The position numbers were made by a program. Below are positions 1-3,000 of a stretch of DNA of 4,041 bases, in pieces. Location: IMG/VR virus record IMGVR_UViG_2711768069_000003, positions 1 to 4,041 of that record; one strand, written 5' to 3'. Position 1 is the first letter of the stretch. Every line of letters starts with the position of its first letter. This stretch comes from a virus. Lineage: Duplodnaviria > Heunggongvirae > Uroviricota > Caudoviricetes.

Positions 1-3000
1 GTTGCATGGTGCCGGGAAGAAGCATCCGTTATCGCCGGACTGCCAAACGTCAGCGAGCTGGTTGATATGGTTTACGAGTATTGCCGGAAGCGAGGCCTGT
101 ATCCGGATGCAGAGTCTTATCCGTGGAAATCGAACGCGCACTACTGGCTGGTTACCAACCTGTACCAGAACATGCGGGCCAATGCACTGACTGACGCGGA
201 ATTACGGCGCAAGGCCGCAGATGAGCTTGTCCATATGACTGCGAGAATTAACCGTGGTGAGGTGATTCCTGAACCAGTAAAACAACTTCCTGTCATGGGC
301 GGCAGACCTCTAAATCATGTTCAGGCTCTGGCGAAGATCGCAGAAATTAAAGCTAAGTTCGGACTGAAAGGAGCAAGTGTATGACGGGCAAAGAGGCAAT
401 TATTCATTACCTGGGGACGCATAATAGCTTCTGTGCGCCGGACGTTGCCGCGCTAACAGGCGCAACCGTAACCAGTATAAATCAGGCTGCGGCTAAAATG
501 GCGCGGGCAGGAATCCTTGTCATTGATGGTAAGGTCTGGCGAACGGTGTATTACCGGTTTGCTACCAGGGAAGAACGGGAAGGAAAGGTGAGCACGAACC
601 TGATTTTTAAGGAGTGTCGCCAGAGTGCAGCGATGAAACGGGTATTGGCGGTATATGGAGTTAAAAGATGACCATCTACATCACTGAGCTTGTAACAGGC
701 CTGCTGGTAATCGCAGGCCTTTTTATTTGAGGAAGAGTAATTGGAGGCTTTAAGAAATGAGTACGATAGCTGAGCTTGTCAGGGCTAATTTTCGTGAAGA
801 GTTGGTGCGTTGGTATCGGTATCGTTCATCGTCCAGTTTGCCGCTTGATGAGTTGTATGAGCATTCACCTGCCGCACGACGCTATCCGCGTGACCGTGTT
901 CTTCGACGGTTGTTCAAACTCAACAATGAGTTTCAGCGCAACAGAATTATCCGGAGTCTGGATTTTAAGTGAAGGAGTGAGCATGAGCGACCTATCATTA
1001 ACCCAGCCAAAGCTAAAAGAATGTCCGTTTTGCGGCGGTAATGCTCGTCTGTGGGTTGAGGCCGGAATAAATATTGATGTGTGGGGCTATGCAGAATGTG
1101 ACCTCTGTGAAGCCAGGGGGGCATGGGCACCATCAGTTGCTGCGGCGGCTGAAAAATGGAACCGGAGAGCAGGAGATGAAGCAAGCCTTTCTGCTTCGCA
1201 ACGAAGCAATCAGAAATAACGCCATAGACGCCATTCTCTCACTACCCATCGACGACAAGTCACCCCACGAAGTCCACGTTAAAGAACCCAAGCGCAGCAA
1301 AGCGCAGAATGACCGTATGTGGCCGATGCTGAACGATGTTTCGCGTCAGGTGCTATGGCATGGTCAACGGCTGGCGCCGGAAGACTGGAAAGACCTGTTC
1401 ACTGCCCTGTGGCTTAAGACCAAAAAACTGGAGCAACGAAGTGTGCCTGGTATCGACGGTGGCGTTGTCATGCTTGGCGTGCGTACCAGCAAAATGCGGA
1501 AGGCCAGCATGACTGAGCTTATCGAAATCATGTTCTGGTTCGGCTCAGAGCGCAACGTGCGGTGGAGTGATGACTCCTGGCGAGAGTATGAATGGTCACA
1601 ACGAAAAGGGAGAGCTGCATGACTATCAAATCAAATACGCCATCACACGACAAGGACTGCTGGCAAACGCCGCTTTGGCTTTTTGATGCACTGGATATTG
1701 AGTTTGGATTCTGGCTGGATTCAGCTGCGAGCGACAAAAATGCTCTGTGCGCTCACTGGCTAACTGAGGCCGACGACGCGCTAAATTCTGAGTGGATAAG
1801 CCACGGTGCAATCTGGAATAACCCACCGTACAGCAATATCAGGCCGTGGGTGGAAAAAGCCGCTGAGCAGTGCATACAACAGCGACAGACGGTAGTTATG
1901 CTTGTGCCAGAGGATATGTCAGTCGGATGGTTCAGCAAGGCTCTGGAGAGTGTCGACGAAGTTCGCATTATCACTGATGGACGGATTAATTTTATCGAAC
2001 CATCGACAGGGCTGGAGAAGAAGGGAAACAGCAAAGGCTCCATGCTGCTGATTTGGCGACCGTTCATCAGTCCTCGACGAATGTTTACTACTGTATCCAA
2101 AGCGGCATTGATGGCGATCGGGCAGGGCGTCAGGATGGCGGCATGAGGCGACAGCGAAGAAGTATCACCGACATCATCTGCGAAAACTGCAAATACCTTC
2201 CAACGAAACGCTCCAGAAATAAACGCAAGCCAATCCCAAAAGAATCTGACGTAAAAACCTTCAACTACACGGCTCACCTGTGGGATATCCGGTGGCTAAG
2301 ACATCGTGCGAGGAAAACAAGGTGATTGACGCGATGATTTATTCGGGGCTATATTCCTCACGCGCCAGCAAAATCTGGCGTCGGGATTAGCACCCCGGAT
2401 ATCGAAACGGTGCATAACCGCGCTGGCGGTTTTTTTATGCGCTAAGCACAGTCACATTCGCGATTTATGGCGGGCTGTGTGGGGGAGCCGAAAGGCTCGC
2501 CGGATGTTTCGACCGGTAGTGCTAACCCCGCACAGTTCGCCACCACGATGATTAGCACCTGACGGTGGCGAGGTAAAAATTATCGAAACGCGAGGTCATT
2601 ATGGCTGTTCAAATTTCTGTCGAAAACCTTTCCCCTGTTACCTATAACCAGATCCCCGTAATTACTACTGAACTGTTGGCTCACCTTTACGGCACAGAAG
2701 CTATTCGTATTCGCCAGAATCACCACGAAAACAAAGGTCGTTTCATTGAGGAAAAACACTTCTTCAAACTTGAAGGTGAAACTTTACGTGAGTTCAAGCA
2801 CAGAGTAGCTTTTAACTACTCTGTGAAAATTGCCCGTAACGTTCGCTCCCTCATCCTCTGGACAGAACGAGGCGCAGCCCGTCACGCAAAAATGCTCGAA
2901 ACCGATCAGGCTTGACGTTATAGGTCGTTACTTGTAGATTTATCTTTGTGAGGCGTCAGAACCTCTCTAAAGCGGACAAAACCAACCCCGTCAGTGTTGG

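Follow-up and report, generated by a model that had tools for sequence, protein, structure and literature searches.

A C4-family antisense RNA module in the leader of an ORF6N antirepressor-type gene of a lambdoid prophage

The 275-nt gap between the ninE stop codon (2325) and the ATG of a short ORF6N gene (2601) is a complete P1-type immI regulatory module, and we consider it very likely that this leader serves as an antisense control module of that type ahead of an antirepressor-type gene. The gap belongs to a 4,041-nt stretch of DNA from a Caudoviricetes virus (the window, by which we mean the whole stretch that was analyzed) and lies between ninE and ant/roi, in the nin region of a lambdoid (Stx-phage-like) prophage. 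The original prediction for this DNA had described a non-coding leader of about 275 bp upstream of the ORF6N gene, which the gene boundaries bear out, and had compared its layout to the antisense RNAs c4 of P1 and sar of P22 as an architectural resemblance only. Its c4-like idea was right, and the relationship is one of family membership rather than mere resemblance: the leader matches the corresponding Rfam models, and P1 immI has the same parts in the same order. The likeness to P22 sar did not stand, since sar is an opposite-strand transcript. Three Rfam families (isrK, c4-a1b1, and C4) score above their gathering scores at contiguous positions of the leader, and the complementary segments of the RNAs and their target sites change together among homologous loci.

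RNA parts of the leader

The features of the leader and the gene that follows it are given below, all on the + strand.

2326-2355, +: sigma-70-type promoter, TTGACG (2326-2331)-18 nt-TATATT (2350-2355), consensus scan with 10 of 12 matches
2362-2436, +: IsrK-family short RNA (a1/b1 leader), Rfam isrK match and fold
2386-2393, +: site a1, AUUAGCAC, in the loop of hairpin 2, complementary to a' of C4
2402-2408, +: site b1, UCGAAAC, within the first TATCGAAACG, complementary to the b' loop
2416-2436, +: intrinsic terminator, stem AACCGC/GCGGTT followed by U7, terminator scan and isrK model
2463-2547, +: C4 antisense RNA, from Rfam C4, fold stability, stem co-variation, and comparison with P1
2504-2512, +: b' loop, AUGUUUCGA, core GUUUCGA at 2506-2512, pairs with b1 and b2
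2518-2525, +: a' single-stranded segment, AGUGCUAA, core GUGCUAA at 2519-2525, pairs with a1 and a2
2537-2571, +: alternative hairpin of the unprocessed transcript, C4 3' arm TCGCCACC (2537-2544) with GGTGGCGA (2564-2571), a2 in the loop
2551-2558, +: site a2, AUUAGCAC, 4 nt past the Rfam C4 match and about 7 nt past the predicted mature 3' end
2583-2589, +: site b2, UCGAAAC, within the second TATCGAAACG, ending 3 nt before the Shine-Dalgarno sequence GAGG (2592-2595)
2601-2915, +: ORF6N gene, encoding a 104-aa protein with an ORF6N domain only (Pfam ORF6N, E = 1.2e-20)

The promoter-like TTGACG-N18-TATATT sequence named in the original prediction is present directly behind the ninE stop codon, and transcription is predicted to start at about 2362, which is also where the isrK match begins. 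This match (RF01394, 2362-2436) covers model positions 1-77 of 77 with 76.6 bits against a gathering score of 50 (E = 7.6e-16), and the c4-a1b1 model (RF03163) matches 2349-2401 with 50.6 bits against 46.7. The short RNA is composed of hairpin 1 (2362-2381), hairpin 2 (2382-2397), and the intrinsic terminator; hairpin 2 is the CGGG/CCCG hairpin that had been drawn around the first repeated motif, and the hairpin plus U7 that had been placed near that motif was recovered by consensus scan as a hairpin at 2416-2431 with its U-run. The layout resembles that of IsrK, with promoter-like and terminator-like sites at the expected places, an antirepressor-type gene downstream, and complementarity to the segment before that gene (a1/a' at 11 of 12 positions and b1/b' over 7 nt). 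The RNA of about 75 nt at 2362-2436 is an IsrK/a1b1 RNA with target-like sites and not the repressor. Read-through of this terminator, which was shown for the Gifsy-1 homologue (PMC4825925), would here yield a precursor of C4 as well as the mRNA.

The predicted antisense repressor is the RNA at 2463-2547. A scan for C4 RNA had been proposed as a check, and the full C4 model (RF01695) matches this segment with 75.1 bits against a gathering score of 45 (E = 4.7e-14). The segment folds at -49.1 kcal/mol (z = -5.95), and none of 200 shuffles was equally stable. An outer stem (2468-2484 with 2526-2542) encloses two inner hairpins (2485-2498 and 2499-2517), and the minimum-free-energy structure is identical to the centroid structure, with the second loop (b') and the single strand that follows (a') unpaired. 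Across 18 homologues the C4 stems co-vary: 12 of their pairs have changed compensatorily on both sides, and pairing is kept in 97.7% of cells, a share that drops to 31-51% when the partners are slid; 0 of 500 shuffles reached the observed values. Alignment with the annotated 77-nt RNA of P1 predicts a mature C4 of approximately 2469-2544. The end of the fold reads GCCACCA (2539-2545), and relatives keep CACC or CGCC. In P1, C4 is released from a longer precursor by RNase P in a tRNA-like 3' ...CCA context.

Each unpaired segment of C4 has two target sites. The motif GATTAGCACC occurs exactly twice in the window, at 2385-2394 and 2550-2559, giving sites a1 and a2; the original prediction had the count and the first position right but placed the second copy one nucleotide too early, at 2549-2558. 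As it also stated, GTGCTAA at 2519-2525 can pair with either motif, being the a' single strand of C4, and the larger inverted copy (2519-2530) agrees with the reverse complement of 2382-2393 in 11 of its 12 positions. The 10-mer TATCGAAACG likewise has exactly two copies (2400-2409 and 2581-2590), one after each motif and the second at the ribosome site of the ORF6N gene, just as described. These 10-mers, which give b1 and b2, are a second target site for the C4 hairpin loop and not passive companions of the first; GTTTCGA at 2506-2512, which the original prediction missed, is the exact complement of the core of both. Both site pairs match the two unpaired C4 segments as exact complements over 7 nt. 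The composite of TTAGCAC followed by TCGAAAC within 40 nt, observed twice in the window, appeared once in 16 and twice in none of 20,000 dinucleotide-preserving shuffles of the window.

The perfect 8-bp stem TCGCCACC/GGTGGCGA around the second motif is also real, but it is located at 2537-2544/2564-2571 and not, as first given, within 2536-2570. It is conserved with co-variation, reading TCACCACC/GGTGGTGA in 18 representatives and TCGCCACC/GGTGGCGA in 3. This alternative hairpin and the outer stem of C4 cannot co-exist.

Loop and site co-variation and the proposed mechanism

The comparative alignment suggested in the original prediction was made with 60 non-identical homologous loci from E. 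coli phages, Salmonella, Serratia, Pectobacterium, Chromatium, Thiorhodococcus, and others, and it revealed strong co-variation of loops with sites. These loci carry 39 distinct a'/b' combinations (specificities), and each of these fits the sites on either side of it in its own locus, at fixed offsets. In all 39 specificities site a1 changes along with a', with 7 nt or more paired, the C4-adjacent site a2 is found at +1 to +7 in 38 of the 39, and the partner at the ribosome site, b2, at +30 to +51. The longest Watson-Crick run averages 6.6-7.3 nt for cognate and 4.2-4.5 nt for non-cognate pairs, and 0 of 2000 permutations reached the observed sum. The two motifs re-assort independently, each along with its RNA segment. 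A strand-specific comparison of G-U-compatible with incompatible transitions between sites and loops, which could have told RNA pairing from DNA-site conservation, was uninformative, since a single conserved C-A mismatch beside the a sites accounts for 62 of 133 mismatches; in the sRNA-Xcc1 set described below the same comparison gave 13 versus 6, counts too few to use.

Neither of two energy-based programs for duplexes, which cannot model loop-loop contacts, picked out the sites. When loops with some of their stem bases were searched against the whole window by RNAduplex, chance duplexes beat the true sites for 3 of 4 probes; this noise came from GC-rich stem bases in the probes, and the scan was replaced by exact loop-complement words with shuffles. 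RNAcofold placed 0 intermolecular pairs between mature C4 and the mRNA, and 3 pairs between C4 and the IsrK-like RNA, all outside the a and b sites, with a gain of about 1 kcal/mol. Because loop-loop contacts are beyond what this method can represent, its result is uninformative either way.

The mechanism that we propose takes processing, translational block, decoy action, and biological output from experiments on P1 and Gifsy-1. Transcription would initiate near 2362 from the promoter at 2326-2355, which looks constitutive, and most transcripts would probably end at the terminator (2416-2436) to give an IsrK-family RNA of about 75 nt that displays a1 in a hairpin loop with b1 behind it. Read-through transcripts would carry the C4 fold, from which RNase P and 3' trimming may, by analogy with P1, produce a stable RNA of about 76 nt. 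Its a' segment (GUGCUAA) would then bind a2, and its b' loop (GUUUCGA) would bind b2, both just downstream on the mRNA. Because b2 ends 3 nt before the Shine-Dalgarno sequence, this pairing should block ribosomes from the ORF6N gene. In P1, lost translation also leads to premature transcription termination, but since icd is absent from the window and the protein belongs to a different family, this Rho-dependent polarity step may not apply here. The sequences of a' and b' would define the specificity of the module (its immunity type). The upstream sites a1 and b1 have the same sequences as a2 and b2. Carried by the short IsrK-like RNA, or in cis by the precursor, they would compete for C4, so that an excess of short RNA should de-repress the gene. 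Competition of this kind (a decoy) has already been proposed for P1 by Citron and Schuster (1990), as related in the supplement of PMC2864571.

A riboswitch-like mechanism without a processed C4 repressor, as published for IsrK, is the alternative that survives best, but we regard it as unlikely. It holds that the a1 region pairs in cis with its downstream complement in an inactive fold that the short RNA opens in trans, and that translation of a leader ORF (2467-2562, 31 codons, the equivalent of orf45) is coupled to the antirepressor gene. This model came out of work on the Gifsy-1 homologue by mutation, structure probing, and tagging (PMC4825925), the a1-a' complementarity that it requires exists in the window, and the C4 fold has a conserved ATG at its 5' edge (invariant ATGG). 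The frame that starts from this ATG, however, varies from 3 to more than 53 codons and stops at many positions among 38 representatives, and we consequently rejected a leader peptide at 2467-2562 as a conserved feature. In Gifsy-1, the segment from IsrK to the antirepressor gene is read as a 45-codon ORF whose stop codon overlaps the next start codon, whereas the frame in the window ends at 2562 and leaves 38 nt to the ATG at 2601; because the gene also has its own Shine-Dalgarno sequence, stop-start coupling is unlikely here. The region evolves as RNA, with compensatory changes in its stems, and the Gifsy-1 authors themselves found the nucleotides of the orf45 region conserved but not the amino acid sequence (PMC4825925). 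The riboswitch-like model also leaves the co-varying a2 and b2 at the ribosome site unexplained. The two models are not exclusive, since cis pairing and a decoy effect would be made by the same contacts.

Slightly less probable still is that the module is structurally intact but functionally vestigial, the gene having been cut to its ORF6N domain when a second module recombined in downstream. The 104-aa protein is the N-terminal half of an Ant-type antirepressor, and E. coli E110019 carries the same leader before a 225-aa Ant with both ORF6N and P22_AR_C domains. In the window, the stop codon of the 104-codon gene sits inside the -35 box of the next promoter, and a 68-bp segment (2844-2911) is duplicated at 3417-3484. 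Against this, every RNA part and site is intact, several independent Stx phages share the leader (2340-2610) at 99-100% identity, and the tandem arrangement recurs in phage GER2 and Stx2a phage F578. Stand-alone ORF6N proteins exist, and C4 could also target, in trans, incoming phages that share its specificity, for which a downstream gene is unnecessary. Because the directly regulated gene encodes only the N-terminal domain of Ant, the biological output of the window copy is uncertain.

The original prediction had allowed that the motifs could equally be DNA operator sites for a sequence-specific protein, with incidental hairpins, and each motif does occur three times (two direct copies and one inverted), a concerted change of which would by itself be compatible with protein sites because a DNA-binding protein reads either orientation; this is nevertheless highly improbable, as the inverted copies coincide exactly with the two unpaired segments of a co-variation-supported RNA fold, the direct copies lie in a hairpin loop or beside a Shine-Dalgarno sequence, places that are downstream of the promoter and do not overlap it, the 7-8 nt sites are half-sites that lack dyad symmetry, the two motifs re-assort with their two RNA segments, and the homologous sites of P1 and Gifsy-1 act at the RNA level (for Gifsy-1, PMC4825925).

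A second module before the next gene

Apart from the main finding, a second, parallel module precedes the next gene (ATG at 3181). Its parts are as follows.

2912-3180, +: second module, from Rfam sRNA-Xcc1, shuffles, promoter scan, and co-variation
2912-2940, +: promoter, TTGACG-17-TAGATT, consensus scan
2956-2961, +: UCAGAA, displayed by a GAGG/CCTC hairpin
2967-2972, +: upstream site CUAAAG
2982-3007, +: weak terminator
3058-3141, +: sRNA-Xcc1-family RNA (Rfam RF02221, 75.7 bits against a gathering score of 53)
3108-3113 and 3118-3124, +: loop CUUUAG and single strand UUCUGAA of the sRNA-Xcc1-family RNA
3155-3161 and 3166-3171, +: downstream sites UUCAGAA and CUAAAG, the latter fused to the Shine-Dalgarno sequence GGAGG

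Only 1 of 20,000 shuffles reached two composites for this module, and 21 co-varying specificities were found in its relatives. The sRNA-Xcc1 and C4 RNAs of the window hold equivalent positions, each before an antirepressor-type gene, and they share the same logic: an outer stem, an inner hairpin loop that pairs at the ribosome site, a 3' single strand that pairs with a second site, a 3' ...CACCAC tail, and an upstream short-RNA unit with copies of both sites. The inner fold of the sRNA-Xcc1 RNA is unlike that of C4. A C4 model built here found no match among sRNA-Xcc1 members at E <= 0.001; because sequence homology between the two is not detectable, we claim an analogy of design only. These similarities suggest that sRNA-Xcc1 is a second class of c4-like regulator. 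That the window carries two tandem immunity modules of different specificity, one C4-based and one sRNA-Xcc1-based and both working by the same logic, we put forward tentatively, at a little below an even chance. In the literature covered here, the sRNA-Xcc1 family (Chen et al. 2011) is described as a trans-acting virulence sRNA or placed upstream of symE. Matches to the Rfam families rsmX and istR at 3776-3896 were discarded as terminator-driven, with E of about 0.3 and scores far below the gathering score.

If the two-module reading is true, isrK, C4, and sRNA-Xcc1, three Rfam families that are currently kept apart, would be parts or classes of one antirepressor-control system, in which isrK is the a1/b1 decoy RNA of the c4 system, orf45 of Gifsy-1 is C4 itself, and sRNA-Xcc1 is a second structural class of cis-encoded c4-like regulator and not a free-standing virulence sRNA, with a' and b' as independently re-assorting determinants of specificity. 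Unifying IsrK, orf45, C4, and sRNA-Xcc1 in this way would alter the reading of published IsrK and sRNA-Xcc1 data. Annotations of the 275-nt gap should show two RNA genes (IsrK-type and C4) and their target sites, none of which is annotated in the feature tables of JLK-2012, GER2, or E. coli E110019. Modules of this kind decide antirepressor production and would bear on induction and superinfection immunity of Shiga-toxin-type prophages, and their many a'/b' specificities may offer a natural collection of orthogonal RNA switches.

Comparison with known systems

The sar RNA of P22 limits antirepressor synthesis by pairing at the ant ribosome site. It is a genuine cis-antisense RNA, read from the other strand over the start of ant, whereas the regulator and its targets in the window lie on the same strand. 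A cis-antisense RNA of the sar type was rejected for the leader, as all complementary parts are on the + strand and a consensus scan of 2250-3250 found no promoter-like site on the minus strand.

The IsrK/orf45/anrP region of Gifsy-1 (Padalon-Brauch 2008; Hershko-Shalev 2016, PMC4825925) is much closer. It also belongs to a lambdoid prophage and has an antirepressor-type gene downstream, its short RNA is likewise complementary to a downstream segment, and its architecture of partial read-through would be that of the window as well. The Gifsy-1 promoter drives the downstream antirepressor gene through a terminator that is partly read through, the short RNA in trans raises antirepressor translation approximately 140-fold, and expression changes when point mutations are placed in the a1 loop and in the downstream segment that is complementary to it (PMC4825925). 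The published model explains these effects by a structural switch and translation of a leader ORF over the C4 region, without a processed C4 RNA (PMC4825925). The IsrK papers covered here, PMC4825925 among them, draw no connection between IsrK and c4.

The closest counterpart is the immI region of P1 and P7, with c4 RNA and the icd-ant operon (Citron and Schuster 1990), in which the order of parts is the same as in the window and the spacing is similar. The annotated order in P1 is promoter (P1c4, TTGACC-17-TATAGT, which corresponds in position to the window promoter), a first hairpin that is conserved, a second hairpin with a1 in its loop, b1, a terminator-like hairpin, and a 77-nt C4 that has, as in the window, b' as a loop and a' as a single strand. 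In both, a2 lies a few nt past C4 and b2 about 30 nt further on, at the ribosome site. In P1, a2 is at +4 after C4, and b2 (GUUAGUGA) is at +33 and leads straight into the GAGG before icd. The C4 and c4-a1b1 models score above their gathering scores in both (68.8 bits for P1 C4), and the target duplexes of both are two short helices of 7-8 nt. The differences concern specificity, genome, and operon. The a' and b' sequences are GUGCUAA and GUUUCGA in the window and CUGUCAA and UCACUAAC in P1, the host element is a lambdoid prophage in one case and a P1-type plasmid prophage in the other, and the window differs from P1 in that neither a C1 operator nor a second promoter was seen upstream. The domain of the regulated protein is ORF6N here and ANT/KilAC in P1 Ant1, and P1 Icd has no Pfam family. 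The regulated operon of the window is not icd-ant, as no small gene separates b2 from the ORF6N gene; unlike in P1, an icd-like coupling gene is absent and the regulated gene follows b2 directly. Dependence on icd-ant is a feature of the P1 operon and not of the C4 RNA family, and the leader of the ORF6N gene is an element of an already known kind.

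The leader upstream of the short ORF6N gene

The window belongs to a lambdoid prophage and falls within its replication and nin region. By Pfam, the gene order runs from the end of replication protein P through an unassigned 96-aa ORF (annotated as 'protein ren' in related E. coli genomes), DUF7301, Lar, NinB, a Dam methylase, and NinE, after which come a 275-nt gap, an ORF6N-only gene, a second gap, an Ant-type gene, and the start of a Rha-like gene. In Escherichia phage JLK-2012 the leader (2340-2610) is 100% identical, and in several Stx2 phages (F451, Min27, 24B) it is 99% identical. 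Of 5426 complete E. coli genomes, 4162 match parts of the window, none of them end to end. An intrinsic terminator (CCCAGCTTCGGCTGGG and a U-run, 3865-3896) lies 3' of the ant gene and accounts for the weak Rfam matches to rsmX and istR, which fall below threshold. Downstream of ant, one related prophage locus carries a sok antitoxin RNA (108 bits; L025, 1852-2023) and another a cluster of four tRNA genes (L057, 1966-2273).

The original prediction described a duplicated, loop-displayed motif in the first gap. GATTAGCACC does occur twice, at 2385-2394 as predicted and at 2550-2559 rather than 2549-2558, and the 8-bp stem TCGCCACC/GGTGGCGA around the second copy exists, although its arms (2537-2544 with 2564-2571) had been placed one base off. 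TATCGAAACG at 2400-2409 and 2581-2590, the CGGG/CCCG hairpin at 2382-2397, the complementarity of 2382-2393 to 2519-2530 (11 of 12 positions), and the flanking promoter-like and terminator-like elements were all recovered. Two composites of TTAGCAC followed by TCGAAAC within 40 nt are present in the window, and none of 20,000 dinucleotide-preserving shuffles contained two; this arrangement is not a product of chance. Two features had been missed: GTTTCGA at 2506-2512, complementary to the core of each 10-mer, and the exceptionally stable fold of 2463-2547 (-49.1 kcal/mol, z = -5.95).

The window was scanned against all Rfam families using curated gathering thresholds. Three adjacent matches in the leader, isrK, c4-a1b1, and the C4 antisense RNA, each exceeded their threshold. 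The analogy with c4, proposed as an architectural resemblance, was thus correct and can be upgraded to membership in the C4 (P1-type) kind. Following P1 nomenclature, a1, b1, a2, and b2 denote target sites, and a' and b' the unpaired C4 segments.

Features of the two modules (gathering scores in parentheses)
up to 2325: NinE
2326-2355: promoter-like TTGACG-18-TATATT (consensus scan)
2349-2401: c4-a1b1, 50.6 bits (46.7)
2362-2436: isrK, 76.6 bits (50)
2386-2393: a1, AUUAGCAC
2402-2408: b1, UCGAAAC
2416-2436: terminator-like hairpin and U-run (consensus scan)
2463-2547: C4 antisense RNA, 75.1 bits (45)
2504-2512: b', AUGUUUCGA, loop of the second inner hairpin
2518-2525: a', AGUGCUAA, single strand 3' of that hairpin
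2551-2558: a2, AUUAGCAC
2583-2589: b2, UCGAAAC
2592-2595: Shine-Dalgarno GAGG
2601: ATG of the ORF6N gene
2601-2915: ORF6N-only protein, 104 aa (Pfam)
5' part of 2912-3180: promoter TTGACG-17-TAGATT (consensus scan)
within 2912-3180: hairpin GAGG/CCTC displaying UCAGAA, then CUAAAG
within 2912-3180: weak terminator
3058-3141: sRNA-Xcc1-family RNA, 75.7 bits (53)
3155-3171: downstream sites UUCAGAA and CUAAAG-GAGG (fused to the Shine-Dalgarno), directly before the ATG at 3181
3181-3855: Ant-type protein, 224 aa, ORF6N + P22_AR_C (Pfam)

A second module and the truncated first gene

The second gap (2912-3180) repeats the whole module design with different sequences ahead of a full-length ant. 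Its sRNA-Xcc1 RNA carries CUUUAG in a hairpin loop and UUCUGAA in a 3' single strand, both complementary to the sites of this module. Among relatives, the sites of 21 specificities co-vary with the Xcc1-type RNA (0 of 2000 permutations), and all 21 have an upstream promoter, a loop-displayed site, and a terminator. On this evidence, a second structural class of c4-like regulators appears to be represented by sRNA-Xcc1.

The first of the two ORF6N genes is an ant that has been truncated. On a rival and less likely reading, the module before it may for that reason be vestigial in this prophage. In E. coli E110019, the same leader precedes a full-length 225-aa Ant, and by comparison the window carries an inserted second module. 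The insertion duplicates 68 bp (2844-2911 and 3417-3484) and puts the TGA stop of the first gene within the TTGACG -35 box that belongs to the second promoter. The same tandem layout is found in phage GER2 and Stx2a phage F578.

The duplicated segment codes for 23 residues and places a further b-site core, TCGAAAC, within both ORF6N genes (2896-2902 and 3467-3473; codons for LET). These copies, which represent one independent event, may be chance or additional C4 contact points. Some other prophages have two tandem C4-type modules about 1 kb apart (L047 and L083, 1065-1151 and 2070-2156), which have the hairpin loop CCUUUUCAG in common but differ in the single strand (GUUCCAA versus GUGCAAA).

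Co-variation of the RNAs and their sites

From viral contigs and one genome for each species, we assembled 160 loci surrounding ORF6N protein homologues, and 40 diverse loci in all were examined in two Rfam scans. C4 matches lay directly before 17 genes, accompanied in 15 by isrK, with the pair about 240 to 50 nt ahead of the start codon; sRNA-Xcc1 lay directly before another 9 genes, about 125 to 36 nt ahead. Covariance models built from these matches identified 102 C4-type and 28 Xcc1-type RNAs in the whole set. In the C4 stems, 12 of 27 pairs changed on both sides, and 97.7% of stem cells were paired, compared with 31-51% when partners were slid by 1-3 columns; none of 500 shuffles reached the observed co-variation.

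In the comparison that the original prediction had asked for, loops and sites change together among homologous regions. The 60 non-identical C4-type loci hold 39 distinct a'/b' combinations. All 39 have a1, the upstream copy of the site adjacent to C4, and the other three copies are matched over at least 6 nt in 79-92%. Upstream, a1 falls roughly between -65 and -80, and in most cases b1 follows some 15 nt later; downstream offsets are +1 to +7 (38 of 39) and +30 to +51. The longest Watson-Crick run averaged 6.6-7.3 nt for cognate versus 4.2-4.5 nt for non-cognate pairs, and none of 2000 RNA-versus-flank permutations reached the observed total. Examples of a' segments with sites on both sides of the RNA are GUUCCAA with UUGGAAC, ACGCCAA with UUGGCGU, and, from Thiorhodococcus, UCGCCAA with UUGGCGA. 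The b' loop of the window, AUGUUUCGA, occurs alongside three different a' sequences among the loci; the two specificity segments re-assort.

DNA operators of a DNA-binding protein would also fit the motifs, and three co-varying copies are compatible with such a protein. The inverted copies, however, coincide precisely with the unpaired segments of an RNA fold that co-varies, and the direct copies occupy a hairpin loop and the ribosome site, 3' of the promoter. Sequence and comparison show the parts, what they can pair with, and that selection maintains the pairing. In the Gifsy-1 paper the C4 region is interpreted as 'orf45', a leader ORF that is translated (PMC4825925), but the corresponding frame in the window (2467-2562) is 31 codons long and ends 38 nt short of the gene, and across 38 relatives it varies from 3 to >53 codons, so that a conserved coding function is unlikely and the published ORF coincides with a C4 RNA gene whose coding frame is not conserved; translation through the region is possible in particular phages. 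Where the C4 fold has its 5' edge, an invariant ATGG provides the start of this 31-codon frame.

The 8-bp stem displaying a2 is also conserved with co-variation, pairing as TCACCACC/GGTGGTGA in 18 representatives and TCGCCACC/GGTGGCGA in 3. Since one of its arms is also the 3' arm of the outer stem of C4, it could form only in unprocessed RNA. According to Weinberg et al., this C4 arm overlaps a terminator hairpin in some cases; in the window, no U-run follows the stem.

C4-type loci share a conserved C-A mismatch beside the a-site duplex (in the window, C2526 opposite A2386 in a1 and A2551 in a2). The a-site target reads GGGAUU or UGAUU, G being needed for full complementarity to AACCC, and this mismatch contributes 62 of the 133 internal mismatches that were counted, suggesting a duplex deliberately kept short.

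Proposed action and relation to known systems

We infer the mode of action from experiments on relatives. In P1, C4 is processed out of the transcript and pairs with a2/b2, blocking the ribosome site, and competition of a1/b1 for C4 has already been proposed (PMC2864571 supplement, PMC12197685; also established knowledge). In the Gifsy-1 homologue, the IsrK promoter drives the downstream antirepressor gene, there is partial read-through of the terminator, IsrK in trans raises antirepressor translation about 140-fold, and mutations to the a1 loop, like those to the complementary bases downstream, change expression (PMC4825925). On the strength of these results, we propose that the promoter of the window would fire constitutively, with terminated transcripts giving an IsrK-type RNA and read-through transcripts giving C4 and mRNA. 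Pairing of C4 at a2/b2 would hold the ORF6N gene off until surplus RNA bearing a1/b1 titrated C4, switching the gene on.

The observation is real, but the element itself is not novel, since it belongs to a kind known from 1990 onward that Rfam already covers. In the openly accessible literature, sRNA-Xcc1 is treated as a trans-acting virulence RNA or is noted upstream of symE or an ORF6N gene. No link between it and c4 was found in that literature, and none between IsrK and c4 in the IsrK paper (PMC4825925) or a 2025 review; priority is uncertain for both. A possible single scheme uniting IsrK, 'orf45', C4, and sRNA-Xcc1 is a side observation worth following up, as are tandem modules of differing specificity and re-assorting a'/b' determinants.

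For P1, the features curated in GenBank are promoter P1c4, a1, b1, a 77-nt C4 RNA, a2, and b2. There, a1 (TTGACAG) lies in a hairpin loop of the RNA, a2 lies 4 nt past C4, and b2 lies 33 nt past C4, continuous with the GAGG before icd. The window shares these parts and their order with P1 immI at nearly equal spacing. The isrK model likewise finds the P1 upstream leader, as a weak match (35.1 bits, E = 7e-6) that has the same three hairpins, so IsrK-type RNAs and the P1 a1/b1 leader are one kind of unit.
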